From Porticoccaceae bacterium (GTDB lineage Bacteria > Pseudomonadota > Gammaproteobacteria > Pseudomonadales > Porticoccaceae), in NCBI GenBank assembly GCA_036843405.1, contig DAITSJ010000007.1, positions 45,693-85,692 on the forward strand: a stretch of 40,000 nt of DNA, given 5' to 3'. Position 1 is the first letter of the stretch. Each line of letters begins with the position of its first letter. The notes under the pieces were generated by a model that was given only the letters and a program-made list of their open reading frames with translations, was not told the DNA's origin and did no database searches. Made by a program: the position numbers and the translations under genes. Shown piece by piece: positions 2,132-20,486 of this stretch.

Positions 2132-5100
2132 GTGATTCCCATGGCACAGCAGAACACGGACACAGGCACCTGGGACTTCTGGATCGACCGGGGCGGCACC
2201 TTTACCGATATCGTCGCGCGCCGGCCCGACGGCGAACTGGTGACCCACAAGCTGCTTTCCGAGAACCCCCAGCAGTACCGGGACGCGGCCCTGCAGGGTA
2301 TCCGGGTACTGCTGGGTGTGGACGCCGGCGCGCCCATCCCCGCCGAGCGTATCCGCGCCGTCAAAATGGGCACCACCGTCGCCACCAACGCCTTGCTGGA
2401 ACGCAAGGGGGATGCCACGGTGCTGGTGATCACCGAGGGTTTTGGCGACGCCCTGCGCATCGGCTACCAGGCCCGCCCGCGGATTTTCGACCTCCATATC
2501 CGCTTGCCGGAGATGCTCTACAGCCGGGTTGTCGAGGCCCGGGAGCGCCTGAGCGCCCACGGGGAGGTGCTGGCGCCCCTGGACGAGGCAAGGATACGGC
2601 GCGATCTGCAACAGCTCTACCAGCAGGGTTTTCGCGCCCTGGCCATCTGCCTGCTCCACGGTTACCGCTATCCCGACCACGAGCGGGCCATTGCCGCCAT
2701 CGCCCGGGAGACCGGTTTTACCCAGATATCGGTGAGCAGCGAGGCCAGCCCGCTGATGAAGCTGGTGAGCCGGGGGGACACCACCGTGGTGGACGCCTAC
2801 CTCACCCCCATCCTGCGCCGCTATGTGGACCGGGTGGCCGGCGAACTGGGAGACACCCGGCTGATCTTTATGCAATCCCACGGCGGGCTGACGGATGCGC
2901 ATTTTTTCCAGGGCAAGGACGCCATTCTCTCCGGTCCCGCCGGCGGCGTGGTGAGCATGGTCCACACGGCGGGGTTGGCGGGCTTCGATCAGGTCATCGG
3001 CTTCGATATGGGCGGCACCTCCACGGATGTCAGCCATTACGATGGCGAATATGAGCGCACTTTCGAGTCGGAAGTGGCCGGGGCCCGTATCCGTGCCCCC
3101 ATGATGCTGATCCACACCGTCGCCGCCGGCGGCGGTTCCATCCTCCATTTCGACGGTGCCCGCTACCGGGTGGGCCCGGATTCCGCCGGCGCCGATCCCG
3201 GCCCCGCCTGCTACCGCCGGGGCGGCCCCCTGACGGTCACCGACTGCAACCTGATGCTGGGCAGAATCCAGCCGGATTTTTTCCCCCGGGTATTCGGCCC
3301 CGATGCCGACCAGCCCCTGGACAGGGAAGTGGTGCGGGAGAAGTTTGCCGCGCTGGCGGCGCGCATTCACCGGGAGACCGGCGACAGGCGCACCCCGGAG
3401 GAAGTGGCTGAAGGCTTTCTGGCCATTGCCGTGGAGAATATGGCCAACGCCATCAAGCGCATCTCCGTGCAGCGTGGCCACGATATCGCCGGCTATGTGC
3501 TCAACTGCTTTGGCGGCGCCGGCGGCCAGCACGCCTGTGCGGTGGCGGACGCCCTGGGCATGGAATGGGTGCTGCTCCATCCCTACAGCGGCGTACTTTC
3601 CGCCTACGGTATCGGCCTTGCGGATGTGCGGCTGATGCGCCAGCGGGCGGTGGAGGAACCCCTGGGGGACGAGCTGCTACCCCGCCTTCAAGCCCTGCTG
3701 GACGAACTGGCGGAAGACGGCCGCCGGGAGATGGCCGAGCAGCGGGTGACGGCGGAGCATACCCGGGCCGAGCGGCGGTTGCAGGTTAAATACGCCGGCA
3801 GCGACACCGCCCTGACCGTGCCCTTCGACACGGTTGCGGCAATCCGGCAATCCTTCGACGACGCCCACCGCAAGCAGTTTGGCTTTGCCAGCCCCGACAA
3901 GCCCCTGGTTGTGGAGGCGGTGCTGGTGGAAGTGATCGGCGCCAGCGATATCGCCCCGGAAAAGGCGGCGGGTCGGGGTGTTCCCCGGCCCGGCGCGGAT
4001 ATTCCCGCCGTCGCCGACATCGAGCTGGTGATGGCCGGGGAACACCGCCGGGCGCCCGTCCATGATCGCGACCGGCTGCGCCCGGGGGAACGGGTGGCGG
4101 GGCCGGCGATCGTCGTCGAGGCCAACGGCACCCTGGTGGTGGAGCCGGACTGGGAGGCGCGCATGGACCCCTACGGCCAGTTGCTGCTGCACCGGGTGGA
4201 GGCCCTGGCCGGGGGCAGGGCCATCGGCACGACGGTGGACCCGGTGATGCTGGAGATCTTCAACAACCTCTTTATGTCCATCGCCGAGCAGATGGGGGCG
4301 GTGCTGGAGAACACCGCCGTGTCCGTCAACATCAAGGAGCGGCTGGATTTCTCCTGCGCCCTGTTCGACCGGCACGGCGAGCTGGTGGCCAATGCCCCCC
4401 ATGTGCCCGTGCACCTGGGCTCCATGAGCGAGAGCATCAAATCGGTGATCCGCCAGTATGGCGGCAGCATGAAGGAAGGGGACGCCTATATGCTCAACGC
4501 CCCCTACAACGGCGGTACCCATCTGCCGGACATCACCGTGATCAAGCCGGTATTCCAGGGCGGCGAGGTGCCGTTCTACGTGGCCACCCGGGGCCACCAT
4601 GCGGATATCGGCGGCATTACCCCCGGTTCCATGCCGCCCCTGAGCCGCACCGTCGAGGAAGAAGGCGTGCTGATCGACAATATCCAGGTGGTGGACCGGG
4701 GGCGCTTTCTCGAGGGTGAGGTACGATCCCTGCTGGCCGGCGGTCCGTACCCGGCCCGTAATATCGACCAGAATATCGCCGATTTCCACGCCCAGCTCGC
4801 CGCCTGCGAGAAAGGGGTGCAGGAAATCCGTCGCATGGTGGATCACTTCGGCCTGGACGTGGTGCAGGCCTACATGGGCCATGTCCAGGACAACGCCGAG
4901 GAAGCGGTGCGGCGGGTGCTGGACGCCCTCCATGACGGTGACTTTCGCTGCCAGATGGACGACGGCAGCGCCGTCCAGGTCAGCATCCGGGTGGACAGGC
5001 AGCGCCGCCGCGCCACCGTGGATTTCGCCGGCACCAGCCCCCAGCACCCGGGCAACTTCAATGCCCCCGCCGCGGTGTGCAAGGCGGCGGTGCTCTATGT

Positions 5101-5758
5101 TTTCCGCACCCTGGTGGGCGACGACATTCCCCTCAACAGCGGTTGCCTCAAGCCCCTGGATATCCGCATCCCGGCGGGTTCCCTGTTGAACCCGTTGTAT
5201 CCGGCGGCGGTGGTGGCGGGCAACGTGGAAACCTCACAGGTGGTGGTGGACGCCCTCTACGGTGCCCTGGGCACCATGGCCGCCAGCCAGGGCACCATGA
5301 ACAACTTTACCTTCGGCAACCAACGCCACCAGTATTACGAGACCCTTTGCGGCGGCTCCGGCGCCGGGCCGGACTTCGACGGCACCGATGCCGTCCACAC
5401 CCATATGACCAATTCCCGCCTCACCGATCCGGAAGTGCTGGAATGGCGTTTCCCCGTCACCCTGGAACGCTTCGCCATCCGCCGGGGCTCCGGCGGCGCC
5501 GGTCGCCACCGGGGCGGCAACGGCGTGGTGCGCCGCCTGCGCTTCGGGGAAGCCATGACCGCCGGTATTCTCGCCAACCGCCGCAAGGTGCCCCCCTACG
5601 GGCTGGCCGGTGGCGGCAATGGTGCGGTCGGCCGCAATTGGGTGGAACGCGCGGACGGCACCGTCGAGGAACTGGGCAGCCAGGCCGAGGTTCGTGTGGA
5701 CCCCGGGGATGTTTTTGTCATCGAAACACCGGGTGGCGGCGGTTACGGCGAACCCTGA
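2132..5758 (+). CDS. 5-oxoprolinase (ATP-hydrolysing), fused hydantoinase A/B (HyuA-HyuB) type
   Basis: 1208-aa ORF. The N-terminus [21 protein letters not shown] and the two-domain hydantoinase/oxoprolinase architecture are typical. Alternative ATG at 2141. Confidence 0.9.
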
Positions 5759-5779
5759 GGCCTGGCGGTGAGCCGGAGG

Positions 5780-6214
5780 CTATTCGGCCATATTCTGGCC
5801 GGAACCTCCCATTTCCGCCGGTACGTCCCTGAATTTTTCCACCCCGTCGTGAATACGCAGCACAGCCTCCTGATAGTTCACATGAACCCCGGGCTTGAAG
5901 GCAAAGTCCGGTATTGTGGCCGCATAGACATCGGTCAGGTTCCAGGTGGGATGCTCGGTAAAAATATGGCCCCCACAGGTTTTGCACCACTTGCGGTGGC
6001 TCTGCGGTGTCTTGCTGTAACTGCCTATATTGTCGACACCTTCGGTGATGGTTACAGCACTGGGGTTCCACAAGGTAAAGGCGTTGACCGGCCCGGCTGA
6101 CCAGCGTCGACAGGATTCGCAGTGGCAGTACCCCATGGCTGCCGGCTCGCCGGTGACTGTGAATTGCACCGCGCCACAAAAACAACTGCCTTTGCAGGAT
6201 TTATTCGCGCTCAT
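5780..6214 (-). CDS. GFA (glutathione-dependent formaldehyde-activating / CENP-V) family Cys-rich zinc protein
   Basis: Cys pattern GSCFCGAV...CHCESCRR...CKTCGGH. The ATG at 6212-6214 overlaps the upstream gene's TGA (ATGA, 6211-6214). The track's GTG start at 6244 is the alternative. Confidence 0.8.
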   Translation of the reverse strand: MSANKSCKGSCFCGAVQFTVTGEPAAMGYCHCESCRRWSAGPVNAFTLWNPSAVTITEGVDNIGSYSKTPQSHRKWCKTCGGHIFTEHPTWNLTDVYAATIPDFAFKPGVHVNYQEAVLRIHDGVEKFRDVPAEMGGSGQNMAE

Positions 6215-6885
6215 GATAGACCTCGCTGTTGGATTGTCCGGCACTGATGGCCGTGAATGGACTTGTCGGTTTCCGGATCGGGAGTCAGCGTTTCATCGGG
6301 TTCGGTGGAGATAGCCCTGCCAACGGTCAAAGCCTGCCGGAAATTTTCGGCCATGCGCCAACAGGCAAAATCCGGCGCCACGCCCAGGCCGTCCAGGAGT
6401 TTGGTGAAAAACGCACGGGCGGCCGCTGCCGCCGCAATATCAAAAATGTCCCCGTCGTCCAGTCCGGCTGCCTTCAGTGGCACAATATCGTCGGCGTCGA
6501 TGGCTGACGCGTCACGGGCCAGTTTGCGGGCATATCCGATAATGGCCCTGTTCGTATCGTCCAGGGGGCTGTTATCAGTATCGCCTGCTATGGCCAGAAT
6601 TTCCTCCTCGGAAAAAAAGTCGGTGAGTGCCCGGCCATGGGCCAGGGCGCAGGCCGAGTTGCCGAGTTCGTGCGCCACGGCAAAGGTCACCAGCTCGAAG
6701 CGCACCGGGTCCATTGGCCGCTTGATGCCGGACAGCAGCTTTGCCCAAAGCGTCATGATTGCCGGGCGGTGGCTAAAGACCCTCGCATAGTTGGGTACAT
6801 AGCCGTATTTTCCCTGCTGCCGGGCATACATTTCCCGGACTTCTCCCCCGGCATGCGCCGGGGCGATGGTTTCGATAAATGCCAT
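6211..6885 (-). CDS. Carboxymuconolactone decarboxylase / AhpD-like (peroxidase-related) family protein
   Basis: Track ORF 6211..7263 trimmed to the ATG at 6883-6885 (MAFIETIAPAHAGGEVREMYARQQ...), which follows a strong GAGGAGG Shine-Dalgarno. CMD-like core ...VTFAVAHELGNSACALAHG... Confidence 0.75.
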   Translation of the reverse strand: MAFIETIAPAHAGGEVREMYARQQGKYGYVPNYARVFSHRPAIMTLWAKLLSGIKRPMDPVRFELVTFAVAHELGNSACALAHGRALTDFFSEEEILAIAGDTDNSPLDDTNRAIIGYARKLARDASAIDADDIVPLKAAGLDDGDIFDIAAAAAARAFFTKLLDGLGVAPDFACWRMAENFRQALTVGRAISTEPDETLTPDPETDKSIHGHQCRTIQQRGLS

Positions 6886-6905
6886 GCCGGAATCCTCCTC
6901 AGGGG

Positions 6906-7091
6906 TCAGGGTTGTTTTGAAAGCTGTACACACCACAGGGCGGCCATCAGGTAAAAGGCGGTTCGGTGCTGATGTGCGGCCAGGGCCTGACATTTGCCGG
7001 CCCAGCATTGCTGTTTTTCGAGCGGTAACCGGCTGGCCAGTGACTTGCGTTTTTGCATATGGCGCTGGAGATGCTTGTCCCTGGTATCCAT
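6906..7091 (-). CDS. Hypothetical small basic protein (61 aa), uncertain
   Basis: ATG at 7089-7091 (a GTG at 7098-7100 overlaps the upstream TGA). Its TGA is embedded in the GAGGAGG SD of the next gene, so it fills an otherwise empty 211-bp gap in the operon. No recognisable family (MDTRDKHLQRHMQKRKSLASRLPLEKQQCWAGKCQ...). Third-position GC looks weaker than in neighbours. Confidence 0.3.
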   Translation of the reverse strand: MDTRDKHLQRHMQKRKSLASRLPLEKQQCWAGKCQALAAHQHRTAFYLMAALWCVQLSKQP

Positions 7092-7096
7092 AACGA

Positions 7097-8056
7097 TCAC
7101 CTGTCGGTTGTATCCGTTCGGTAGTGGCCGATCTGTACTTCCTCGCCATGATCGGCGTAGTCCCCCGCGGCGCGCCGGGCGCGGAAATCGCCCCAGTTAA
7201 TCCGCCGGTAACGGGCGGGGTTCTGCGCGCCAGTAGTGGCAGGGAGGGGCTGGTAATCGGCACTGTAGGCCGGATTGAAAAAGAACGGGGCGCTGTAGCG
7301 CTCCCGCGCCGGATTGGCGATCACTCGGTGCAAAGCCGCCCGGTAGCGGTCGTTGGACCAGACCTGCACGATATCGCCGATATTGACCACCAGGGCGTCG
7401 GCGCGGGGCGCCACCAGGTGCCAGTTATCTTCCCTGAACACTTCGAGGCCGGGCTGCCTGTCCTGCCAGAGCAGGGTGAGGGCCCCGGCATCGGTATGGT
7501 GGTTGATGCCCAGATGCCCGGAAGTCGGCACGGCAACACCCTCGGGGCGGGTCGGCCGGGGGCACCGGGGGTAGTAGTTCAGGCGCAGGAAGCTGGAGTG
7601 TTGCTGGAAAAAGCGGTCCAGGTCGTTGGCCGCCATACCCAGATTGACGGCAATGGCCGACAGAAGGCGGAACGCCAGTTTTTCGCAGGCACTGTAATAG
7701 GCGGTAACCGCGGGCCTGAAGTCGGGCAGGGCCTGTGGCCATTGCGGTATCAACTGGTTGCCGTCAGCGGGGCCGTAATCGTAGATCTCCTTCCAGTCGC
7801 GGGTGTTCTTGGTCAGTTCCCGGTCATAAAAGCCCCAGGGGTTGGTGGCCGTGCGGGAAAGGGACCGCTTGTCGGCCCGGGGCAGGGCAAAAAAGTGGTG
7901 CATCTGCTCCCGCAATTTCCGGATAACGGGATCGGGGATACCGTGATCCACCACCTGAAAGAACCCCCAGTGCCGGCAGGCCAGATCCAGCCGTTGCAGT
8001 GTCTGCGGCTGGTGCAGGTGGCCGATGGAAATAACGGGGATCTGCTTGCTGTTCAT
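7097..8056 (-). CDS. 2-oxoglutarate/Fe(II)-dependent oxygenase, isopenicillin N synthase / ACC-oxidase-like family
   Basis: Trimmed to the ATG at 8054-8056 (MNSKQIPVISIG...). N-terminal CRHWGFFQVVDHGI, His-x-Asp...His triad (INHHTDAG ... AALHRV) and the RxS 2OG site (RYSAPFF). Starts 11 bp after the upstream gene. Confidence 0.85.
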   Translation of the reverse strand: MNSKQIPVISIGHLHQPQTLQRLDLACRHWGFFQVVDHGIPDPVIRKLREQMHHFFALPRADKRSLSRTATNPWGFYDRELTKNTRDWKEIYDYGPADGNQLIPQWPQALPDFRPAVTAYYSACEKLAFRLLSAIAVNLGMAANDLDRFFQQHSSFLRLNYYPRCPRPTRPEGVAVPTSGHLGINHHTDAGALTLLWQDRQPGLEVFREDNWHLVAPRADALVVNIGDIVQVWSNDRYRAALHRVIANPARERYSAPFFFNPAYSADYQPLPATTGAQNPARYRRINWGDFRARRAAGDYADHGEEVQIGHYRTDTTDR

Positions 8057-8067
8057 GGCGTTCGCCC

Positions 8068-9549
8068 TCAGGCGGTTTTTCTCGGTTGGACCCATTGGGG
8101 CAGCAGTTCCCGCGGCGCAAAGTGCGCCGGTACGCTGACCGGGATGCCGCAACCGGCCAGCTTGTCCGCCAGGGTGGCGTTGTCGAAGGCCTCGAAAACC
8201 TCGCTGCAGCCACCCATATGTTCGCCGCCGATAAAGATCTGCGGAATGGTGGGCGAACCGGTGCGTTGCCCAAGCACGGCGCGGATTTTTCCGCCCCGGT
8301 TATCCTGCTGGTAGGCTACGGAGTCCAGGTCGATGCTGCGGTAGGGGATCGCCAGGCGTTCGAACAGCTTGCGCACCGCCCAGCAGAACTCGCACCATTC
8401 CAGAGCGAACATTACTACCGGCTCTTCGCTGACCACCTGTTCCACAAAAGCAGCCGCCTCCCGGGCCGGTTTCGGTGTGCGGGCGGCCGGCGGTGCGGCC
8501 GGGGTGGTATCAAAGCGATAGTTGGAAGTGGATTCGGAGAGCGCCAGCTCCTCCTCTGTCATGGCTTCGCCGATATCGCCGAACAGTGGGGTGGACAGGT
8601 ACCTTTCGCCGGTATCCGTGAGCATGCAGACAATATTGCTGCCCGGCGCGGCGCGCTCGGCAACCGCCAGGGCGCCGGCCAGGGTGGCGCCGCTGGAGAT
8701 GCCCGCGAAAATCCCCTCCCGCCTGGCCAGTTCACGGGCGAGTCTGAGGGCGTCGTCGCCGGAGACCGGCACGATCTCGTCGACCAGCCCGTCACTGACC
8801 GCATCCTCCGCCAGTGTGGAGATAAAATCCGGGCTCCAGCCCTGCATCAGGTGGGGCCTGAAGTGGGGATGGCTGGCGCTTGGCGAGCCGTCTGTGTTCC
8901 TGGGCTGGGGAATACCACTGCCGAGAATCCGGGAATTGTCCGGTTCGGCCACCACAATCCGGGTTTCCGGGCTGTCCTGTTTCAGGCGACGGGCCACGCC
9001 TTTAAGGGTGCCCCCGGTGCCGAAGCCGGAAACCCAGTAATGGAGGGGCTCGCTCCCGAAATCCCGGAGAATCTCCACGGCCGTGGTACGGCTGTGAATA
9101 TCGGCATTGGCCTCGTTGTCGAACTGCCGGCACAGGAACCAGCCGTGTTTTTTCGCCAGTTCTTCCGCCTTGGCCAGCATGCCGGTGCCTTTTTCGGCGG
9201 CGGGCGTCAGTACCACCCTGGCGCCCAGAAAGCGCAACAGCTTGCGTCGCTCCACGCTGAAGTTCTCCGCCATGGTGACCACCAGGGGATAACCCTTGCG
9301 GGCACAGACCATGGCCAGGCCGATACCGGTATTGCCGCTGGTGGCCTCGATCACCGTCTGTCCCGGCCTGAGCCGGCCGGTTTTCTCCGCGTCCTCGATA
9401 ACCGCCAGGGCCATGCGGTCCTTGATCGACCCCATGGGGTTGAAGGCTTCCACCTTGACATAGACGTTTACGCCCGCCGGAGCCAGTTCGTTGAGTCTCA
9501 CCAGGGGCGTATTGCCGATGGTTTCGAGGATATTGTCGTAGCGTGCCAT
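8068..9549 (-). CDS. Cysteine synthase family (PLP, CysK/CysM fold) fused to a C-terminal glutaredoxin domain
   Basis: 493 aa. TPLVRL...NPMGSIKDR (PLP lysine), TSGNTG, and GISSG with TDTGERYL in the first ~320 aa. A Pro/Ala linker follows, then the Grx fold VVMFALEWCEFCWAV...TIPQIFIGGEHMGG. The CEFC codons are at 8383-8394. Confidence 0.85.
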   Translation of the reverse strand: MARYDNILETIGNTPLVRLNELAPAGVNVYVKVEAFNPMGSIKDRMALAVIEDAEKTGRLRPGQTVIEATSGNTGIGLAMVCARKGYPLVVTMAENFSVERRKLLRFLGARVVLTPAAEKGTGMLAKAEELAKKHGWFLCRQFDNEANADIHSRTTAVEILRDFGSEPLHYWVSGFGTGGTLKGVARRLKQDSPETRIVVAEPDNSRILGSGIPQPRNTDGSPSASHPHFRPHLMQGWSPDFISTLAEDAVSDGLVDEIVPVSGDDALRLARELARREGIFAGISSGATLAGALAVAERAAPGSNIVCMLTDTGERYLSTPLFGDIGEAMTEEELALSESTSNYRFDTTPAAPPAARTPKPAREAAAFVEQVVSEEPVVMFALEWCEFCWAVRKLFERLAIPYRSIDLDSVAYQQDNRGGKIRAVLGQRTGSPTIPQIFIGGEHMGGCSEVFEAFDNATLADKLAGCGIPVSVPAHFAPRELLPQWVQPRKTA

Positions 9550-9673
9550 GGGGGCTCCCGTCTCGTTCCTGATGTTGTCTTCAGGGTGAGAATAGGGTCC
9601 CGGCGATGAAGCCAGCGTTTAAATCACCGTGGTATTTTCCATTTGCCCGGAAACCATCAGGTGGACCCCTTTT

Positions 9674-9699
9674 TCTGCGGTTGTCTGCAAGGGCTGCAA
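9674..9699. promoter_or_regulatory. Three direct (T)CTGC(A/G)(A/G) repeats at 10- and 9-bp spacing in the divergent intergenic region; candidate regulator binding site
   Basis: tTCTGCGGttgTCTGCAAgggCTGCAAa, with core hexamers starting at 9675, 9685 and 9694. A fourth TCTGCA lies at 9751. A TAAAAT -10-like hexamer sits at 9736-9741. Purely sequence-pattern based. Confidence 0.2.
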
Positions 9700-9784
9700 A
9701 CCCTTACGGGATTACCGCTTTCACGCAAGAGGGCGTAAAATACAAACGGTTCTGCATCCGATAGAAACCAAGGGACAGGCTGGG

Positions 9785-12730
9785 ATGGCAGAGGCACAAC
9801 TGGAACTTCGTTTTCTCGGCGACCTGGCGGTGATTCGGGAAGGCGAGGTCTTGCCACTGCCACCATCCCGCAAGACCCGTGCCCTGCTGGCCTACCTGGC
9901 CATGAATCCCCGGCCGTTTCGCCGGGAAACCCTCTGTGAACTGTTGTGGGAAATCCCCGACGATCCGCGAGGCTCCCTGCGCTGGAGCCTGTCCAAGATT
10001 CGCGGGCTGGTGAATACCCGGGACCACGTCCGGATCGTGGCGGACCGCACCTTTGTCCGTTTCGATGACAGCCATGCGGGGATCGACGTCCGGAACCTCT
10101 ACGCGCTGGCCGAAGGCAATCTGCAGGAAACCCCCATAGAGGCGCTGAAGACCGCAGCCGAAGCCTACCAGGGACTTTTCCTCGAGGGCCTGGAACTCAC
10201 CAACTTCTATACCTTTTACGCCTGGTGCGTGGCGGAACGGGAGAGGGTGACCCGGGCCCGGACCCGTATTCTCGAGGCCCTGGTTCAGCGGCTGCAGGAC
10301 ACCCCCGAGCAGGCTCTGGAGTACGCCCGGGCCCTGGTGATCAATTCCCCCTATGAGGAGGCCGCCCAAGCCAAACTGATCCGTCTGCTGGTGGAGTCCA
10401 ATCGCCCCGACGAAGCGCAGCAGCAGTATCAGCTGGGTAAGCGCATGCTGGCGGAAGTCGGTGCGGAGACCTCCGGGGCACTGTTCCGGGCCTTGCGGGG
10501 TGCGCCCGGCAGTTCTGGCGGCAGGGCCGCGGCAAAGCCGGTAGCCCCCCGGCCGGAGCAGCACAGCGATCTGGTGGGTCGGGAAGACGAAATGGGCCGG
10601 CTGACCGCTCTCTATACCCGGGTCAAGGAGCAGCGCAACGCCCGATTTGCCCTGGTCAGTGGCGCCCCGGGTATCGGCAAAAGCCGGGTGCTGGACGCAC
10701 TGGCGGCACTGGGAGAGGAGGACAATGCCAAAGTGATGCGGGCCAGCGCCGTCGAGTCAGGTCGCCTCCGGCCCTTTGCCCTGTGGCTGGAGGCTCTGGC
10801 CGGGACAGTCGGCGACCGCTGGGGCAAACCTTTCACCGATCCGGACAACCGGGAGCAGTTGCTGGCGGATCTGGCGGAACTGGTGGCCCGGGAAACCGCC
10901 AGCGGCCCGGTTATCCTGGTGCTGGATGATTTCCAGTGGTGCGACGAATCCAGTGCCGCCGCCCTGGACCATGTGGCAAGGGCCAACCTTGACCAGCCAC
11001 TGCTGGTGGTTATCGCCGGCCGGGAAAGCGAACTCAGCGACAACACCGCCACCCAGCGAACCTTCCGTTCTCTGCGGGCCGCGGGCCTGATGGAGGAGAT
11101 CCGTCTCGGTCCATTGTCGCAGGAGGCAGTGCTGCAAATTATTGATGATCAGGCGCCGGCAGCCGAATGCCAACGCCTGAGCCGGGAGTGTGGCGGGAAT
11201 CCCCTCATGGCCATTGAGCTTGCCCGGGCCTGCGCTGCCGGGGAGGGCACCGGTTCCCTGGCGCAGCTGATCCGGGAGCGGCTGTCCCGTTTTGATCTCC
11301 AGGCGGTGGACCTTCTGCGCTGGGCGGCGGTGCTGGGGGGCCGTATCCATATCGCCACCCTGGCGGACATCGCGGATATGACACAGGAGACCGTTGGGGA
11401 TGTGTTGGACCAGGCCGTGCAAGAGGCCCTGCTGGTGCCCGTGGATTACGGTTTTCGTTTCTCTCACGACCTGGTGGCCCGCTGTATCTACAATGATATC
11501 TCACCCACCCGGCAACGGGTGATGCACGGCAGGGTGGCCCGGCTGCTGGAAAAGGACACGGCACTGGACCTGGCCCAGGCCGCCGCTCTTGCCCACCATG
11601 CCTGCCTCAGCGGGGAAGCGCCACTCGCGGCCCGGGGCCTGGTGTCCGCCGGACGGCTATGCCTGCGTTTTTTCGCCAACCGGGAGGCGGTCAGCCTGGC
11701 CCGCAAGGGGCTGAGGCTGGCGCAGCAGCTCAACGACGGGGAGCGGGTGTGCCTGACACTGGAACTGGAAGAAATCCTGCTGACCGCGATGCCGCTGGAG
11801 GACTGGGAAAGCGCCGCCAGGCAGTACACCGACCTGGCCGAGCAGGCCCTGGACCATGGCGCCATCCACCACGCCCGGCTCGGCTACTATATGGCCAGCT
11901 ATGTTCGCTGGTATCAGGGTCACTGGCACAGCGCCCGGGAGGATTCCCTGCAGGCGGAACGGGTGGCCCGCGGCGGCAGCGAGGAAGACCGGATCCAGGG
12001 CATGGCGGAGGCGGCCCGATGCCTGGCCATGCTGGAACAGGACCTGCCCCGTGCCGACGCCATGCTGATGGAAGCCCGTGCCCTGGCCCGGCGCCGGGGA
12101 ATCAGCATAGAGGCCATTCCCGCCGCCGGCGGCATGCTGCGTTACCATGAAAACCGCCTTGACGAGGCCGAGGAACTGTTCAAGGAAGCACGCACCCTGG
12201 CCAAAGGCACGGGTAACCACATCGGTGAATTCCAGGCCAATGAGTACCTGGTGATGATCGACTTCGGGCGGGGTCGCTACCGGGCGGCCCTGGCGCGCTG
12301 CGGCGAGTTGATGGAACTGGGAGAGAAACTGCGGGAGGGGAGTGAGGCTCCTTTTGCCCGGGCGATGGAAGGACTGTGCCGTTATGCCCTGGAAGATGAC
12401 AGCCAGGCGCTGGACGCAGCCCTGGACGATCTGCGCAATGCGGATGCCAAGCACCGCCTGGCTTGCGTCCTCAGCCGGGCTGCGTTGCTGGATAACGAGC
12501 GGGGACACTACCGGGCGGCCCGCACCCGGGCGGAGGAGGCCCTGGCCTGCGCCGAGGCCCTGGACAGGGCGACGGAAATCATGCTTGCCCATATCGCCCT
12601 GGCCCAGGCCAACAGGCATGAGCGGGACGAATTGTCCTACCGCCACAGCCTGGCCGGCATCGCCGCCCTGGAGGGTGCCGCCGTGGCCGCCTGGGCGCGG
12701 GAGCGGGCCCGGCAGTTGGTTGAGGGATGA
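9785..12730 (+). CDS. Large transcriptional regulator: OmpR-type winged helix + BTAD (SARP/AfsR-like) N-terminus, AAA/STAND-type ATPase, C-terminal TPR-like helical repeats
   Basis: Trimmed to the ATG at 9785 (MAEAQLELRFLGDLAVIREGEVLPLPPSRKTRALLAYLAMNP...WSLSKIR, then the BTAD helices). Walker A GAPGIGKS at 10661-10684 and Walker B VILVLDDFQWCDE. Long Ala/Leu/Arg-rich helical C-terminal half. Confidence 0.85.
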   Translation: MAEAQLELRFLGDLAVIREGEVLPLPPSRKTRALLAYLAMNPRPFRRETLCELLWEIPDDPRGSLRWSLSKIRGLVNTRDHVRIVADRTFVRFDDSHAGIDVRNLYALAEGNLQETPIEALKTAAEAYQGLFLEGLELTNFYTFYAWCVAERERVTRARTRILEALVQRLQDTPEQALEYARALVINSPYEEAAQAKLIRLLVESNRPDEAQQQYQLGKRMLAEVGAETSGALFRALRGAPGSSGGRAAAKPVAPRPEQHSDLVGREDEMGRLTALYTRVKEQRNARFALVSGAPGIGKSRVLDALAALGEEDNAKVMRASAVESGRLRPFALWLEALAGTVGDRWGKPFTDPDNREQLLADLAELVARETASGPVILVLDDFQWCDESSAAALDHVARANLDQPLLVVIAGRESELSDNTATQRTFRSLRAAGLMEEIRLGPLSQEAVLQIIDDQAPAAECQRLSRECGGNPLMAIELARACAAGEGTGSLAQLIRERLSRFDLQAVDLLRWAAVLGGRIHIATLADIADMTQETVGDVLDQAVQEALLVPVDYGFRFSHDLVARCIYNDISPTRQRVMHGRVARLLEKDTALDLAQAAALAHHACLSGEAPLAARGLVSAGRLCLRFFANREAVSLARKGLRLAQQLNDGERVCLTLELEEILLTAMPLEDWESAARQYTDLAEQALDHGAIHHARLGYYMASYVRWYQGHWHSAREDSLQAERVARGGSEEDRIQGMAEAARCLAMLEQDLPRADAMLMEARALARRRGISIEAIPAAGGMLRYHENRLDEAEELFKEARTLAKGTGNHIGEFQANEYLVMIDFGRGRYRAALARCGELMELGEKLREGSEAPFARAMEGLCRYALEDDSQALDAALDDLRNADAKHRLACVLSRAALLDNERGHYRAARTRAEEALACAEALDRATEIMLAHIALAQANRHERDELSYRHSLAGIAALEGAAVAAWARERARQLVEG

Positions 12731-15239: not shown

Positions 15240-16763
15240 TCAGTCCACTGGTTTCAGGCTGCGCAGCAGCGCAGTGATTTCCGGTTCCTCTAGTCCCTCT
15301 GCGCTGTCGACGGCCAGGGCGATCAGCCGGGCTTCGGGGGCACCGCCGAGTAATTTGGTCCAGGCCCGACGCAGGCGGATTCCGGCCTGGGAGGATGCGG
15401 TGCTTCCCGCCACGGCGTAAGTGACATAGAGGTGGCGAACTCTTTGGCTCTTTTGTAACAGTAGCCTGATATGCCGCACCTGCTCGCAGCCGTGGTTGTC
15501 GCAGACATGGCGTTCGCGGCTTGTGCCTGGCATCCAGCCGCCGTGCATGCCAAGGTCGGCTCCCGCGCTGATCTTGGTGCGGGCGTCCGCGGTTTCCCCG
15601 ACAAAGACCGAGAGGGAACGGCTATCTTTCCGGTAACCGGCGAGGGTGGAATTAATATGTTCGCCGGAGATCGCGGGATGCCAGTCGGCAGAAGGCGTTG
15701 TCCGGCGCCAGCCGTTTACGGTTTCCGGCAGTGTCGGCGATGCCGTCAAGGGAATGGCTTCCCCGGGGGAGGGGAGCAGCAGAGGCGCCGATACCACAAC
15801 CAGGGTTGTGGGCACGAGGATTGCGAGGCGCGGGAACCGGGAACGCCTGACCTCTGTCGGGCCGGTAAACGCTTCCTTTTTCAGGTATGCGAATACGGCC
15901 AGCAAGGTGATAAAGAGCAGCCCCAGCGACAACCAGTCGAAATAGACATGACCCGACAGTTCCATCTGGCTGCCGGTGATATAGTCCCAGGCCGCGATAC
16001 CGACGACGCGCAGGCCATTGGCGACAATAGCCAGCGCACCGCTGAACAGGGTCAGCGCGGCAATTTTCCACCAGCGCCGGTATATCAGAAGGGCCAGTAC
16101 CAGCCCGAGAAAGAGCGCCATGAGCAGGTAGTGGAGTCCTGCGCAATCATTGATGACCACATAGCGGTTGGATTCTACAAAAACGGCGAAACCTTCGATG
16201 CGGAAGGGTATTCCGAAAACCCGGGGGAAGGTTGCCAGCATTTCCACCGTCAGGTGTCGCAACGGTATTGTCAGAAAACCGCCCGAAGGCACCAGGAACA
16301 GGAGCAGTGCCAGCATGGGCAGTGCCCGGGTAAAAACCGTCCAGCCCAGGGCCGCCAGGGTCAGTGCCCAGACCATGGCGATCAGCGCAAACTGCCGGCC
16401 CTCGGCGATATTGAGCAGGTCGGCCGCAAGCCAGGCGCCGGCGGCAACCAGGGCGGCAGGAATGGCCCATGGGTTTGTGGCGGGTGCAGCGCCCGTGAAG
16501 TCGCCCCGACGGTGCCAGAGCAGGTAAAGAAAAACCGGCATCACCACCCAGCCATACTGGTAGGTGGCGTTGTTGTCCCAGATGGCCATCATTGCCAAAA
16601 GGCTGTCCGCGTGCGCGGCGATTGTCAGCGCCAGTGCGGCCGCCAACAGGGTCAGCGCGCTACCCCACCCGGCCTGCCCCCGAAAAGGAACAGCGATTGC
16701 GCCCGGTGGGCGGCCTTTTGGCGTTGGACAAACGGCGCTGGCGGGTACTGCGGTCTCGGTCAT
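15240..16763 (-). CDS. Exosortase (EpsH/Xrt family) with fused C-terminal EpsI-family domain
   Basis: 507 aa and polytopic. Carries the exosortase catalytic signature Cys (VINDCAGLHYL), Arg (IVANGLRVVG) and His (LSGHVYFDW). About 190 aa of soluble C-terminal EpsI-like domain (approximately 15243-15806). The ATG overlaps the upstream TGA (ATGA, 16760-16763). Subfamily not determinable by eye. Confidence 0.85.
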   Translation of the reverse strand: MTETAVPASAVCPTPKGRPPGAIAVPFRGQAGWGSALTLLAAALALTIAAHADSLLAMMAIWDNNATYQYGWVVMPVFLYLLWHRRGDFTGAAPATNPWAIPAALVAAGAWLAADLLNIAEGRQFALIAMVWALTLAALGWTVFTRALPMLALLLFLVPSGGFLTIPLRHLTVEMLATFPRVFGIPFRIEGFAVFVESNRYVVINDCAGLHYLLMALFLGLVLALLIYRRWWKIAALTLFSGALAIVANGLRVVGIAAWDYITGSQMELSGHVYFDWLSLGLLFITLLAVFAYLKKEAFTGPTEVRRSRFPRLAILVPTTLVVVSAPLLLPSPGEAIPLTASPTLPETVNGWRRTTPSADWHPAISGEHINSTLAGYRKDSRSLSVFVGETADARTKISAGADLGMHGGWMPGTSRERHVCDNHGCEQVRHIRLLLQKSQRVRHLYVTYAVAGSTASSQAGIRLRRAWTKLLGGAPEARLIALAVDSAEGLEEPEITALLRSLKPVD

Positions 16764-17605
16764 ACCAGTCGTGGTTTATCGTTGCTGCCGCTCTCTGGCA
16801 CTTTATTTGTGCCGGTCGACAGAAAAGGCTGCAACAGCACCCGGTGGAGCCGGTTGTCTCGCGGCTCACGAAAATCCTCGATTCCCAGCACCTGCCTGTT
16901 GCCTTTAACGGTTGCATTTTCCCTGTGAAGGGAACCGAAAATCCGGTCCCAGAGGGTAATTACCAGTGCGAAATTGGTATCTGTTTCGCGTCGGTCCGCG
17001 TAATGGTGAACCACATGGAAGGCGGGGGTTACGACGATATTCCTGAGAGCGCCGTCGAGCCATTGCGGCACTTCGATGTTGGCGTGGGAAAGAACGACCA
17101 CGGCGGTGGCGATCAGGCTGTATAAGAGCACCGCTTCCGGCGGTATGCCCAACAGATAGATCACGGCGAACAGGCCGGCAATACTGAGCATCACTTCCAG
17201 TGGGTGATGGCGTTCGCTGGTGGTGAAATCGATCTCCACGTCCGAGTGATGGACCCGGTGCAGCCGCCAAAGAGCGGGCACGGCGTGCATGAGGCGATGT
17301 TCCCAGTATTTCCAGACATCCAATAGCAAAATACCGGCAACCATGCCGGCAGCCGCGGGTACTCCAAGAAACGTCAGCAGACCCGTTTCCGCCTTCTGGG
17401 CGCCAAGGGCGGCGACCAGGGCCGACAAAGGCACCAGCAGCTTTTGCAGGCCGAACTGGAAACCGAACAGGGCCAGATTGGTGGACCACCTGCCGGTCAC
17501 CGGTTGCAGAGTCGGGCGGCATGGCTTGAGCAGTTCCGCCACTGCCGCCGCTCCGACGATGCCGCAGAAAACAAAGGGCAACAAGCCGGCAAGATAGCCG
17601 AGCAT
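16760..17605 (-). CDS. Fatty acid hydroxylase / sterol desaturase superfamily integral membrane di-iron enzyme
   Basis: 281 aa and hydrophobic. Three histidine boxes: WEHRLMH, LHRVHHS and FHVVHHY. Confidence 0.85.
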   Translation of the reverse strand: MLGYLAGLLPFVFCGIVGAAAVAELLKPCRPTLQPVTGRWSTNLALFGFQFGLQKLLVPLSALVAALGAQKAETGLLTFLGVPAAAGMVAGILLLDVWKYWEHRLMHAVPALWRLHRVHHSDVEIDFTTSERHHPLEVMLSIAGLFAVIYLLGIPPEAVLLYSLIATAVVVLSHANIEVPQWLDGALRNIVVTPAFHVVHHYADRRETDTNFALVITLWDRIFGSLHRENATVKGNRQVLGIEDFREPRDNRLHRVLLQPFLSTGTNKVPESGSNDKPRLV

Positions 17606-17635
17606 CGTCTTTTTACCTGATAGCGGGGGGAGCCG

Positions 17636-17833
17636 TTAGCGCTTACGCTTGACGATCCAGATTCCCGCCACCACTCCGGCTGTCGCCAGGGCCGCCAGGC
17701 CTCCGCCGCTGAACGGGACCACTGTACCCAGGGCGCTGCCCACGACCTGGCCGGCGGGAACACCCAGGGGTGCACTGGCCAGGGCATCGGCGGCCATCAG
17801 GGTGGCCGGGATAATAGCCATCAATCTAAACAT
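17636..17833 (-). CDS. 65-aa secreted mini-protein with a C-terminal exosortase-type (PEP-CTERM/GlyGly-CTERM-like) sorting signal
   Basis: ATG at 17831-17833 preceded by GAGG (gcGAGGtataccATG). Sequence: MFRLMAIIPATLMAADALA/SAPLGVPAGQVVGSALGT/VVPFSGGG-LAALATAGVVAGIWIV-KRKR-stop. Lies 30 nt upstream of the hydroxylase gene. The track ORF extends to 18013 without support. Confidence 0.6.
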   Translation of the reverse strand: MFRLMAIIPATLMAADALASAPLGVPAGQVVGSALGTVVPFSGGGLAALATAGVVAGIWIVKRKR

Positions 17834-18107
17834 GGTATACCTCGCTCTTGTTATCGGTAACGTCGCGGAGTGCGACGCCAGGCACAGGATAGAGCAGCAA
17901 ATTTCAGGCCAATCGAAAAAAGTTAGAGGAAAACAAAAGGTTGGGTGTTTTGGGGTGCGAATTTCCGAATCGGGTGTAAAGAAAGCTGGCAGTATCGAAT
18001 CCGAAACTCCCATAGCTCGGAGCAGGAAGCCGCCGGAGGATTTTCTCGCCAGATCGATGGTCCGGATGCGCGGAAGTCGTGTCCAGCGCAGGACAACGAA
18101 ACTGATC

Positions 18108-18183
18108 GGACACCGTTTCGCCGGACCAATTCCGACGCACCTTCAAATAGAGAGGGATATCGATTTGAGTGCCGGGTTGGTAG
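18108..18183. repeat. Degenerate copy of the structured intergenic repeat also present at 29158-29231
   Basis: cgtttcgccggaccaattccgacgcaccttCAAATAGAgAGGGATATCgATTTGAGTGCCgGGTTggta aligns by eye with attttcgccggtattttcggggcgcgcactCAAATAGAtAGGGATATCtATTTGAGTGCCaGGTTaata. Confidence 0.6.
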
Positions 18184-18243
18184 TACTTATCATCCTGTAA
18201 AATAAATTGGATTTTTACCCACACCCAATAAGGAAAGGAGATA

Positions 18244-18693
18244 ATGCCTATGCCAGGCATCCAACTGACCGACGACATGGTCGAAATGATCAGCCGCGCC
18301 ATCGATACCGACAATGTGATGGTTTTGGCGGTGGTGGATAAAAACAATCGGCCCTCCCTGACTTTCCGGGGAAGCACAGCCGTTTATGGTCCCGACCAGC
18401 TCAGCCTCTGGGTACGCAATGCCGGCGGCGACACCATCCGGGCCATCGAGCACAATCCCCACGTGGCCATGATGTATCGCTCGAAATCCGTGCCGTTTCT
18501 TGAGTTCCGGGGCAGGGCGCGGGTGGTTGCCGACCCTGAAGAGAAAAACCGCGTCTTTGACCTGGCCCATGAGAAAGAACAGCAGGGGGACCCCGAACGC
18601 AAGGGCACCGCTGTCATTATCGACCTGGACAGGGTCAACGGTGTGATCGGTTTCGATGACAACGGCCCGGTCTGGTGCAATATGGAGCGCTGA
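18244..18693 (+). CDS. Pyridoxamine 5'-phosphate oxidase family (FMN-binding split-barrel) protein
   Basis: 149 aa with a strong SD (AAGGAAAGGAGAtaATG). ...RPSLTFRGSTAVYGPDQLSLWVRN...HVAMMYRS...FLEFRGRARVV pattern. Confidence 0.75.
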   Translation: MPMPGIQLTDDMVEMISRAIDTDNVMVLAVVDKNNRPSLTFRGSTAVYGPDQLSLWVRNAGGDTIRAIEHNPHVAMMYRSKSVPFLEFRGRARVVADPEEKNRVFDLAHEKEQQGDPERKGTAVIIDLDRVNGVIGFDDNGPVWCNMER

Positions 18694-18778
18694 GGCGCAC
18701 AGGGATCTGCTGCTGACGATTTCCTCGAGTCCGCCCGGCCATTTGCCTGGGTGAATCGATTCCTCAGGGGCCTGCACA

Positions 18779-18819
18779 AACCTATGAAAAGCAATCAGGC
18801 CAGCAAATGCCTGATTGCT
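18779..18819 (-). terminator. Probable intrinsic terminator of the GMC oxidoreductase gene (possibly bidirectional)
   Basis: Perfect 11-bp stem AGCAATCAGGC / GCCTGATTGCT (18790-18800 / 18809-18819) with an 8-nt loop. On the minus strand it is followed by TTTTCATAGGTTT. Lies 27 nt past the stop. Confidence 0.45.
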
Positions 18820-18845
18820 ATAGTGTTGACGATTTTTGCGGATGT

Positions 18846-20486
18846 TCAGCCGGCCTTGCGCTGTTCCCCGGTGTTTCGGTCTTCCAGGATAAATTGGGCG
18901 GCCCGCCTGCCGGCGGCCATGGCCGGCGCATTGGTGTTGCCGGAGGGCAGTTCCGGGAAAATGGACGTGTCCACCACCCTTAGGCCGTCGACGCCGCGCA
19001 CACGGGTTTGGGGGTCCACCACCGACTCCTGATCGGAGCCCATGCGGCAGGTGCCGGAGACGTGGTAGGCGGTGGCGCCCAACGTCTTGTAGGCCTCGAG
19101 GATCTCGTCGTCGCTCTGTACATCGGGCCCCGGCTGGACCTCTTCGACGATGAAGTCCTTCAGGGCGGGTTGCCCCGCGATCCTGCGGATATAGCGCACC
19201 ATGGCCACGGACGCGGCCTGATCCTCGGGGTCGCTCAGGTAGTTGACCTCGATATGGGGCTGGTCGCCGGCGTCGGCGGAGGTGATATAGAGCTGCCCCT
19301 GCGACCGGGGATGCATGTGGTAGCCGCCGACGGTGAAGCCGGGCTCCTTGTCCAGTTCCGGCCCCTTGGGCCCATTGTGCAGTGACCACAGGCCGACGCC
19401 CAACTGGCAGTCGGGCCGGTCCAGGCCTTCCCGGCTCTTGATGTAGGCGAGCATTTCCTGGGAGCCGTGGGCCAGGGGGCCGCTGCGGGTGACCAGGTAC
19501 CGGAGCAGGTTCCACAGTAATCGCGGTCCCTGGAAAGCGCTGTTGAGGCTGCCCCGGGTAACCCGGTACTGGACCATGAAGTTGCAGTGTTCGCGCAGGT
19601 TCTGGCCCACCTGGGGCAGGTCCGCGACTACCTGTATGCCCGCTTCCTTCAACCGTTCGGCGGGGCCGATGCCGGAGAGCTGGAGCAGCTTGGGCGACTC
19701 GATGGCGCCGCCGCAGAGAATCACCTCCCGGTTGCTCGCGATAGTGTGGCCGGCGCCGCTTTTGTCCCGGACAGCCACGCCCACGGCCCTGGTGCCCTCG
19801 AAGAGAACCCGCTCCACGCGGGTGTCGCTGATCACGGTCAGGTTGGGGCGGGTCATTGCCGGGTGCAGGAAGGCCTTGGCCGCACTCTGCCGGGTACCCT
19901 CCCAGATGGTCCGCGGCTGGTAGCCGGCACCGCCATCGGCGGCGTTGTTGGTGTCGGGCACCCGGGGTGTGCCGGCCTGGTCGCAGGCATCGAGAAAGGC
20001 CTCGCACAGGGACTTGGGTCCGGGCCCGGAGATATCCGGCGGATGGCCGGAGATGCGCAGGGGACCGCCAACGCCGCGCTCTTCCGACTCGCCAAACTCG
20101 TGATGCTCGTTGGCCTTGAAGCAGGGCAGCAGGTCGGCCCAGCTCCAGCCGGCACAACCCAGCTCGCCGGCCCAGCGGTTGTAGTCGCCGGCAAAGCCGC
20201 GGGCGTAAACCAGGCCGTTAATGGAACTGGAACCGCCGATAACATGTCCCTTGAGCCAGGTCTCCTTCGCGCCGCCCGGGCGGTGCACGTCATAGGCCCA
20301 GACGTGGGGATTGCCCGGGGCGAGCAGCTTGCCGATCCCCCGGGGCATATCGATCAGCGGGCTCTTGTCCATGGGGCCGCTCTCGATCACCACGACGGTG
20401 TTGTCCGGGTCCGCCGACAGTTCGCTGGCAAGGACACAGCCGGCGGAACCGGCGCCCACGATAATGTAGTCCGCACTGTCGATCAT
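18846..20486 (-). CDS. GMC family oxidoreductase (choline dehydrogenase-like flavoprotein)
   Basis: 546 aa. N-terminal ADYIIVGAGSAGCVLASELS and the full-length GMC pattern (...GGSSSINGLVY..., C-terminal ...HVSGTCRMG...). SD GGAGA. Confidence 0.9.
   Translation of the reverse strand: MIDSADYIIVGAGSAGCVLASELSADPDNTVVVIESGPMDKSPLIDMPRGIGKLLAPGNPHVWAYDVHRPGGAKETWLKGHVIGGSSSINGLVYARGFAGDYNRWAGELGCAGWSWADLLPCFKANEHHEFGESEERGVGGPLRISGHPPDISGPGPKSLCEAFLDACDQAGTPRVPDTNNAADGGAGYQPRTIWEGTRQSAAKAFLHPAMTRPNLTVISDTRVERVLFEGTRAVGVAVRDKSGAGHTIASNREVILCGGAIESPKLLQLSGIGPAERLKEAGIQVVADLPQVGQNLREHCNFMVQYRVTRGSLNSAFQGPRLLWNLLRYLVTRSGPLAHGSQEMLAYIKSREGLDRPDCQLGVGLWSLHNGPKGPELDKEPGFTVGGYHMHPRSQGQLYITSADAGDQPHIEVNYLSDPEDQAASVAMVRYIRRIAGQPALKDFIVEEVQPGPDVQSDDEILEAYKTLGATAYHVSGTCRMGSDQESVVDPQTRVRGVDGLRVVDTSIFPELPSGNTNAPAMAAGRRAAQFILEDRNTGEQRKAG

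Follow-up and report, generated by a model that had tools for sequence, protein, structure and literature searches.

The ORF at 17636..17833 (-) of the 40 kb stretch of DNA analyzed here (the window) is a real, conserved gene for a 65-residue protein that is little more than a predicted export signal, a short glycine-leucine repeat and a membrane-anchor sorting tail. We consider it more likely than not that this mini-protein is the precursor of the single, dedicated substrate of an exosortase encoded two genes downstream, although no experiment exists on any member of the family and no cleavage site is known for any exosortase. Together with a membrane hydroxylase, which is often fused to the exosortase, they appear to form a previously undescribed one-substrate protein-sorting system, and a possible handle on what exosortases attach their substrates to.

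The mini-protein gene and its family

The minus strand from 17833 to 17636 reads MFRLMAIIPATLMAADALA|SAPLGVPAGQVVGSALGTV|VPFSGGG|LAALATAGVVAGIWIV|KRKR-TAA, exactly as described in the original prediction. The reading frame is open back to 18013 (125 aa), but the ATG at 17833 is the only start preceded by a Shine-Dalgarno sequence, GAGG at 17840..17843 (-), with a 6-nt spacer. An SD-like element was present in front of the aligned start in all 17 family ORFs examined. In support of the reality of the gene, dN/dS was 0.25-0.33 in three close pairs of relatives, with indels in whole repeat units. Contrary to the original prediction that gene callers would probably miss it, the ORF is called as a 65-aa gene in NCBI (GCA_002388905.1), JGI and Logan assemblies, although JGI misnames it a flavin-dependent dehydrogenase.

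A single-sequence search with the peptide found only itself, and the family emerged only when we anchored on the exosortase and read the DNA upstream of it. A pattern for this kind of tail found no other such ORF in the window, and in 26 loci it matched only copies or homologues of this peptide. A profile of the family was then used in an exhaustive search of 1.84 billion representative proteins, which gave 173 hits at E<=1e-3, with E-values down to 5e-22. Among the 150 best hits, every one carrying the tail is 138 aa or shorter. The few long hits are low-complexity LGxx-repeat proteins that match only the repeat part of the profile and have no tail, and they were rejected as relatives. Thus, the view that the cargo is the peptide itself, as originally proposed, is the natural reading, and the system looks like a dedicated one, even though whole genomes of carriers were not covered.

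Linkage to a membrane hydroxylase and an exosortase

The next genes on the same strand encode a PF04116 protein of the fatty acid hydroxylase / sterol desaturase family (16760..17605 (-), 281 aa) and an exosortase (residues about 39-293) fused to an EpsI/DUF3485 domain (about 320-503; 15240..16763 (-), 507 aa). The hydroxylase stop and the exosortase start overlap as ATGA. A homologous mini-ORF was found directly upstream of the hydroxylase in 18 of 18 related loci that have both enzymes. When we started from peptides instead, a hydroxylase-exosortase-EpsI fusion followed in 4 of 4 further loci. These loci span Alpha-, Beta- and Gammaproteobacteria. Two cultured carriers exist, Polaromonas sp. 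UC242_47 and Pelagibius marinus NBU2595. No other neighbour was conserved. A hydroxylase lies immediately upstream of the exosortase in every locus with enough sequence except two, L012 and L026; of these, L012 is a clade member with neither peptide nor hydroxylase nearby.

The fusion of hydroxylase and exosortase in at least 11 distinct loci argues strongly against coincidental adjacency, and against a rhombosortase as the processing enzyme. It is therefore very unlikely that the mini-protein is a GlyGly-CTERM substrate of a rhombosortase encoded elsewhere, as the SGGG run in front of the helix of this copy might suggest. The GlyGly-CTERM model hit none of 17 and none of 37 members scanned, an invariant Pro, which GlyGly-CTERM lacks, lies upstream of the Gly-Gly, and no rhomboid-family match was found among the window ORFs scanned or the genes called on the related locus L001. 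Rhombosortase is an unrelated serine intramembrane protease, but its substrates likewise have a Gly-rich signature before a helix and a basic tail, and receive a glycerophosphoethanolamine-containing moiety after cleavage (PMC6219818).

Architecture of the precursor

The predicted signal peptide (17777..17833 (-), residues 1-19, MFR / LMAIIPATLMAA / DALA) ends in a predicted signal peptidase I site, ALA|S. In the family alignment, Ala occurs at -1 in 37/37 members and at -3 in 36/37, Gly occurs at +1 in 29/37, and the signal peptide is 19-30 residues long. Kyte-Doolittle hydropathy peaks at the N-terminal h-region (1.8) and at the C-terminal helix (2.1). The putative mature cargo (17720..17776 (-), residues 20-38, SAPLGVPAGQVVGSALGTV) consists of period-4 hydrophobic-Gly-x-x repeats. 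Across the family it varies from 4 to 42 residues (median 27), with 26% Gly, 18% Leu and a Gly-Gly spacing of 4 in 130 of 211 cases. The middle was originally predicted to be charge-free, but this holds for only 18 of 37 members; the family feature is the repeat.

The cargo is followed by the signature VPFSGGG (17699..17719 (-), residues 39-45), which directly abuts the C-terminal transmembrane helix LAALATAGVVAGIWIV (17651..17698 (-), residues 46-61, with small-xxx-small motifs), and by the terminal basic cluster KRKR with the stop TAA (17636..17650 (-)), in which R63 and K64 are nearly invariant. The family consensus of the signature is [LVF]-P-[IFLV]-x-x-G-G, with the conserved Pro mostly 22 residues (range 20-26) before an RRKR-type cluster, so that its original description as a hybrid of PEP-CTERM and GlyGly-CTERM applies to this one copy only. 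As originally predicted, the PEP-CTERM models miss the tail: neither hit the window peptide, TIGR02595 hit 1 of 17 family members at E=0.13, and PF07589 hit 0 of 17 at E<=10. PEP-CTERM, GlyGly-CTERM, PID-CTERM, GVDTG, LPXTG, MYXO-CTERM and Loki-CTERM models gave only scattered sub-threshold hits reflecting the generic helix plus basic tail. Glycine-zipper Pfam families (PF05433, PF13488 and others) gave no significant match either, the best being PF05433 at E=3.8 in 1 of 17 members. Small envelope lipoproteins of the OsmB/YmgG/SlyB type, which probably share the small size and GxxxG periodicity, are anchored N-terminally through a lipobox Cys that is absent here. The Cys in the 'LACAG' of one subgroup is not conserved and is not in lipobox register, and a lipoprotein reading was rejected.

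The helix and basic tail are the best conserved part of the family, better conserved than the cargo. This is unusual for a sorting signal, and would also fit a stable single-pass membrane subunit, pseudo-substrate or regulator of the hydroxylase-exosortase complex, whose real substrates would be lipids and/or canonical PEP-CTERM proteins encoded elsewhere. The small-xxx-small helix-packing motifs and the XrtA-like character of the exosortase are in line with this possibility. Moreover, canonical PEP-CTERM proteins lie near the cassette in two distinct loci (L005, and L031/L032, which are the same place), so the exosortase may not be strictly single-substrate. However, no PEP-CTERM tail occurs in the window, and a subunit would not need a cleavable AxA signal peptide, as predicted here, together with a Pro/Gly-Gly signature at a fixed distance from a terminal basic cluster, which is the tripartite sorting architecture. 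In addition, cargo length varies ten-fold, the peptide gene is present as two tandem paralogues in one locus (L027), and similar tails carry different cargo in L033 and L026. We therefore regard the subunit explanation as possible but unlikely.

The exosortase and its relation to known sorting systems

The enzyme belongs to the exosortase/archaeosortase superfamily, with matches to PF09721 (138.8 bits, cut-off 25.7), TIGR02602 (118.4 bits, cut-off 105.55) and TIGR04178 (38.8 bits, cut-off 23). The catalytic Cys207 (codon 16143..16145 (-)), Arg252 (16008-16010) and His272 (15948-15950) are invariant in 22/22 clade members. XrtA (TIGR03109) was the best-scoring subtype model, but its score, 180.6 bits in the window and 126-163 bits in 5 relatives, was below the cut-off of 208 in all 6 members tested, and XrtW, XrtD, XrtV, XrtC, XrtN, XrtB and XrtK all fell far below their cut-offs. 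Searches of PDB sequences, and a Foldseek search with a good AlphaFold model of the exosortase (pLDDT 83), gave no significant relatives, and in the literature examined we found no defined acceptor. Current Pfam and NCBIfam releases label the proteins only as 'hypothetical protein' and generic 'exosortase'.

The cassette shares with the PEP-CTERM/XrtA (EpsH) system the enzyme superfamily, the Cys/Arg/His triad, a fused EpsI domain as in many XrtA proteins, the tripartite C-terminal signal, and, as far as predicted from sequence, a Sec-type signal peptide and an RpoN promoter-like element. Nevertheless, the Glu and second Pro of the PEP motif are absent, no EPS, PrsK/PrsR or glycosyltransferase genes occur in the window, the enzyme appears to pair with an adjacent mini-substrate rather than with many substrates, and a PF04116 hydroxylase is linked or fused. 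The idea that this is an ordinary member of the exopolysaccharide-associated PEP-CTERM/XrtA system is thus largely refuted. The architecture fits Haft's criteria for a dedicated sorting system (10.1101/2023.06.07.544157). JDVT-CTERM, in which target and processing enzyme are likewise encoded by consecutive genes and the tail is tripartite, differs in having a Rce1/CPBP-like protease, an invariant Cys in the signature, a folded cargo and no hydroxylase.

A possible role of the hydroxylase

The hydroxylase matched PF04116 with 104 bits (cut-off 31), and its 11 His residues (H103/H107, H116/H119/H120, H133/H134, H174 and H197/H200/H201; codons 17003-17299) are invariant in 18/18 hydroxylases. The closest named NCBIfam model is that of OlsE, an ornithine-lipid head-group hydroxylase of the PF04116 family with the same His boxes (NF052566, E about 1e-22 to 1e-26). 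However, the scores of 85.2 bits in the window and 79-92 bits in relatives, against a cut-off of 475, mean that it is not an OlsE equivalog, and nothing identifies its substrate. OlsE acts on an amino-acid lipid, and N-acyl amino acid synthases have been linked to PEP-CTERM/exosortase systems (Craig et al. 2011, as cited in PMC11631085 and PMC9762135). Our literature search found no paper pairing exosortase with fatty acid hydroxylase or sterol desaturase.

In the course of events that we propose, the precursor is exported by Sec, and its signal peptide is cut after ALA19, as inferred from the AxA site. It would then stay anchored N-out/C-in by its C-terminal helix, with KRKR in the cytoplasm. 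A hand-drawn positive-inside topology places Cys207, Arg252 and His272 of the exosortase on loops or helix ends on the periplasmic side, where the enzyme is inferred, by analogy with ArtA and sortase, to recognize the signature at the outer end of the helix and to cleave there through a thioester intermediate. The short peptide, about 19-25 residues here, would be transferred to an acceptor rather than simply released. The hydroxylase would be coupled to this step, and most likely makes or tailors a membrane-lipid acceptor; alternatively, it hydroxylates the hydrophobic peptide itself. The best precedent is archaeosortase A with PssA and PssD (Haloferax, Methanosarcina), a homologous enzyme family in which lipid-metabolism genes are syntenic with the sortase and required for both cleavage and lipid anchoring of PGF-CTERM proteins (PMC7157517). 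There, however, the substrates are large S-layer and surface glycoproteins, the partner enzymes make a head-group amine (archaetidylethanolamine) and not a hydroxyl, no gene fusion is known, and the system is archaeal. Moreover, if the metal site of the hydroxylase faces the cytoplasm, as it should in Scs7p/SCD-type membrane di-iron enzymes, direct hand-over to a periplasmic exosortase triad needs lipid flipping or action before export.

In a more speculative version of this model, which we put forward only tentatively, the pair or fusion would be a two-step lipopeptide machine. The di-iron enzyme would install a hydroxyl on a membrane lipid, possibly an amino-acid lipid, and the exosortase would use that lipid to resolve its thioester intermediate, giving a C-terminally lipid-linked glycine-zipper peptide on the cell envelope. 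This would be the first case in which the acceptor chemistry of a bacterial exosortase can be read from gene fusion, and would define a new class of ribosomal, Sec-exported, exosortase-matured lipopeptides.

Alternatively, the cassette could make a released, RiPP-like or signalling peptide, with the exosortase acting as a hydrolase that frees the peptide from its anchor and the hydroxylase decorating it. The short, variable, repeat-based core, the tandem paralogues and the enzymes encoded immediately downstream are precursor-like features. Additionally, the two hydroxylase-less relatives, L026 and L033, have no hydrophobic-Gly-x-x repeats, as if the hydroxylase went with the repeat cargo, but this rests on two cases and is confounded by lineage. 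We consider this explanation unlikely, as no member of PF04116 appears to be known to act on peptides, the metal site is expected on the cytoplasmic side while the mature peptide is periplasmic, no exporter across the outer membrane is conserved next to the cassette, and ArtA, a relative of exosortase, gives lipid-anchored products (PMC7157517).

A sigma-54 promoter-like element upstream of the mini-protein gene

A sigma-70 promoter and terminator scan, and RNA folding of the peptide-hydroxylase spacer, gave nothing above shuffled sequences. A sigma-54 (RpoN) -24/-12 promoter-like element, TGGCCTGAAATTTGCT, is located at 17896..17911 (-), 62 nt upstream of the peptide ATG; no inverted repeats were found upstream of it in the window. 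Alone, this element is no better than chance in the window (19 matches found, 21.9 expected). However, 13 of 17 related loci have a >=9/11 match 40-110 nt upstream of the peptide start, against about 1% expected per locus, and the element was seen again in 4 independently retrieved loci. This suggests that the cassette may be RpoN-driven, as canonical PEP-CTERM genes are RpoN-dependent (PMC9850573).

The Mini-Gene and Its Neighbors

The minus strand from 17833 to 17636 encodes MFRLMAIIPATLMAADALA-SAPLGVPAGQVVGSALGTV-VPFSGGG-LAALATAGVVAGIWIV-KRKR-stop, exactly as in the original prediction. The reading frame is open back to position 18013, but only the ATG at 17833 is preceded by an SD sequence, GAGG at 17840-17843, with a 6-nt spacer. 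The hydropathy of the encoded protein peaks at the N-terminal core and at the C-terminal helix. Thirty nucleotides downstream, on the same strand, starts a gene of the PF04116 fatty-acid-hydroxylase family (16760..17605, 104 bits). Its stop codon overlaps, as ATGA at 16760-16763, the start of a gene for an exosortase with a fused EpsI/DUF3485 domain (15240..16763).

Contrary to the original prediction that standard gene callers would probably miss it, the 65-aa ORF is called as a gene in the NCBI assembly GCA_002388905.1 (contig DGNJ01000058.1), in a JGI metagenome and in a Logan assembly. JGI names its product "flavin-dependent dehydrogenase". The only trace of a reason for this name is a sub-threshold match of the Gly/Ala/Val-rich segment to the geranylgeranyl reductase model (TIGR02032, E=0.22), so it is a misannotation.

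Conservation and Linkage

When used alone, the peptide retrieved only itself from 5.8 billion clustered proteins. Anchoring the search on the exosortase gave 15 relatives. Two of them (proteins P0011 and P0012) are single polypeptides carrying FA_hydroxylase, exosortase and EpsI. Contig look-ups and a scan of one genome per species gave 22 further loci (designated with L numbers), which come from Alpha-, Beta- and Gammaproteobacteria and include two isolates, Polaromonas sp. UC242_47 and Pelagibius marinus NBU2595. As shown by tblastn, a hydroxylase is encoded immediately upstream of the exosortase in every locus with enough sequence, except L012 and L026. In all 18 loci that have both enzymes, a short ORF lies directly upstream of the hydroxylase gene, and it has an SD sequence, a predicted signal peptide, Gly-rich repeats, a Pro-containing signature, a hydrophobic helix and a terminal RRKR-type cluster. 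No other neighboring gene is conserved. The one clear exception to the synteny is locus L012, where an exosortase-EpsI gene of the same clade (5974-7545; XrtA model 153.8 bits) has neither a hydroxylase gene nor a mini-ORF within 6 kb on either side.

In eight of these loci (L005, at 7755-10070, L015, L016, L017, L019, L020, L021 and L023) the two enzymes are encoded by one ORF. Taking into account also P0011, P0012 and loci L027, L029 and L031, hydroxylase, exosortase and EpsI are fused into one polypeptide of about 716-816 aa in at least 11 distinct loci, mostly Burkholderiales-like and Hahella. In locus L028 the N-terminus of the hydroxylase is called as a separate 142-aa ORF (5356-5784), and the protein P0215 is an 86-aa chimera of a hydroxylase N-terminus with a peptide tail, but both are probably assembly or frameshift artefacts in metagenomic contigs.

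The reverse test also held. A profile of 17 such peptides found 63 clusters, and the four of them that we looked up independently were each followed by a hydroxylase-exosortase-EpsI fusion. In one case, L027, two tandem paralogous peptide genes (5001-5270 and 5318-5569, encoding 89 and 83 aa) lie in front of one fused enzyme, which is a precursor-like gene duplication. Three close pairs of peptide genes gave dN/dS of 0.25-0.33, with indels in whole repeat units. The mini-gene is real and conserved.

Anatomy of the Peptide Family

In the family alignments, the predicted signal peptide has 19-30 residues, with Ala at position -1 in 37/37 members, Ala at -3 in 36/37 and Gly at +1 in 29/37. The segment between the signal-peptide site and the signature has 4-42 residues (median 27), of which 26% are Gly and 18% are Leu. 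Gly-Gly spacing in that segment is 4 in 130 of 211 cases, i.e., it follows the pattern (hydrophobic-Gly-x-x)n. The segment is free of charge in only 18 of 37 members. The signature, [LVF]-P-[IFLV]-x-x-G-G, abuts the helix, and its Pro lies 22 residues before the basic cluster in most members (range 20-26). The best conserved part is the helix, with its small-xxx-small motifs, and the R-R-K tail. As the tail is better conserved than the cargo, the possibility that the mini-protein is a stable membrane subunit or a regulator rather than a substrate remains live.

Specificity of the Tail

To see how specific the tail is, we performed an exhaustive HMMER search of 1.84 billion representative proteins. 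It gave 173 proteins at E<=1e-3 and 70 at E<=1e-10. Among the 150 best hits, every one that covers the tail is 138 aa or shorter, while the few long hits match only the repeat part of the profile and are unrelated low-complexity proteins. None of the 17 or 37 members scanned reaches any Pfam or NCBIfam model. The PEP-CTERM, GlyGly-CTERM, PID-CTERM and other sorting-domain models are absent or give only scattered sub-threshold hits.

This matches Haft's description of a dedicated, one-enzyme-one-target system (10.1101/2023.06.07.544157). However, canonical PEP-CTERM proteins, a VWA-domain protein and a 182-aa protein, are encoded within about 1.2 kb of the cassette in two distinct loci (L005, 11279-12007; L031, 2437-2985, the same place as L032, 277-825). 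Carriers therefore also have ordinary PEP-CTERM substrates, and the exosortase might not be strictly single-substrate.

The Exosortase and the Hydroxylase

The exosortase passes the generic exosortase models. The XrtA model scores 180.6 for the enzyme in the window and 126-163 for its relatives, against a cut-off of 208, and no other named subtype comes close. We consider ordinary PEP-CTERM/XrtA membership to be largely excluded. Cys207, Arg252 and His272 are invariant in 22/22 exosortases. An AlphaFold2 model (pLDDT 83, pTM 0.74) predicts a helical membrane domain, a three-strand insert before Cys207 and a beta-rich EpsI domain. No solved structure appeared to be related to the enzyme by sequence, or by fold at E<=1e-3. 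The best, but non-significant, PDB fold matches of the modeled EpsI domain (15240-16300, residues about 345-503 of the exosortase) are PsbP-like proteins and the Eag/SciW chaperones, which bind transmembrane helices of T6SS effectors (E 0.15-0.3, TM about 0.35-0.40). This is only a lead that EpsI might hold hydrophobic peptide segments.

In the hydroxylase, all eleven His-box histidines are kept in 18/18 members. The nearest named model is OlsE, at 85 bits against a cut-off of 475, so the enzyme is not an OlsE. It has no PDB relative by sequence. Our manual reading of the sequences, based on hydrophobic segments and the positive-inside rule, places the His boxes on the cytoplasmic side and the exosortase triad at the periplasmic ends of helices. 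In this reading the C-terminus of the hydroxylase and the N-terminus of the exosortase are both cytoplasmic, which is consistent with the fusions.

A Sigma-54 Promoter-Like Element

A -24/-12 element, TGGCCTGAAATTTGCT, which was not mentioned in the original prediction, lies at 17896-17911 on the minus strand, 62 nt before the ATG. On its own, it is no better than chance in the window. However, 13 of 17 related loci have a >=9/11 match 40-110 nt upstream of the peptide start, against about 1% expected per locus from the background rate in the same loci, and four independently retrieved loci have one too. Canonical PEP-CTERM genes are known to be RpoN-dependent (PMC9850573). Taken together, these results suggest that the mini-gene is probably sigma-54-driven.

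Putative Function of the Cassette

The mini-gene is strictly linked to the genes, frequently fused to each other, for a hydroxylase and an exosortase with intact catalytic residues, and its sorting-type tail was confined to mini-proteins among the 150 best hits. We infer that the peptide is exported by Sec and cleaved after ALA19, that the exosortase cleaves it at the signature through a Cys207 thioester, and that the resulting hydrophobic peptide of roughly 19-25 residues is transferred to an acceptor. A released RiPP-like peptide is a rival that we also consider live. In the case of the hydroxylase, we favor the supply or tailoring of a lipid acceptor. There are precedents for this: pssA and pssD are syntenic with artA and are required for both the cleavage and the lipidation of ArtA substrates (PMC7157517), and rhombosortase products carry a glycerophosphoethanolamine moiety (PMC6219818).

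The main alternative is that the hydroxylase acts on the peptide itself. There is a hint in favor of that: the two hydroxylase-less relatives found, L033 (310-510 and 571-1284) and L026 (5461-5640, frameshifted, and 5953 onward), have a mini-ORF with a similar tail (VPLEDGG or TPVDD, then a helix, then a basic end) and a sigma-54-like site, but no Gly-x-x-x repeats and no hydroxylase between the peptide and the exosortase, as if the hydroxylase went with the repeat cargo. With n=2 and lineage confounding, this is only a lead.

Exosortases with a tripartite C-terminal signal, including dedicated pairs, are already known. What appears undescribed here is the signature, the mini-substrate, the unmodelled exosortase clade and, above all, the obligatory or fused PF04116 hydroxylase, judging from the absence of any model in Pfam or NCBIfam release 20 and from our finding no paper that pairs exosortase with this hydroxylase family.

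Genomic Context

The window otherwise holds ordinary metabolic genes. No EPS, PrsK/PrsR, type II secretion or rhomboid-family match turned up among the ORFs scanned or among the genes called on locus L001, and the window contains no PEP-CTERM tail. Within the limits of these scans, we consider the peptide being a rhombosortase substrate to be largely excluded.

The G+C content falls to 0.57-0.61 across 16-19 kb (16000-19000), over the cassette and its upstream spacer, against about 0.65 in the flanks. The flanks carry unrelated metabolic genes: OsmC and a flavoprotein on one side, and PNPOx, GMC oxidoreductase, malate synthase G and GlcDEF on the other. This suggests an inserted module and is compatible with a mobile three-gene one. 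About 2.5 kb beyond the exosortase gene lies a gene for a large BTAD + AAA_16 (SARP/STAND-type) regulator (9629-12730, plus strand), which is not a sigma-54 activator and is not conserved next to the cassette elsewhere.
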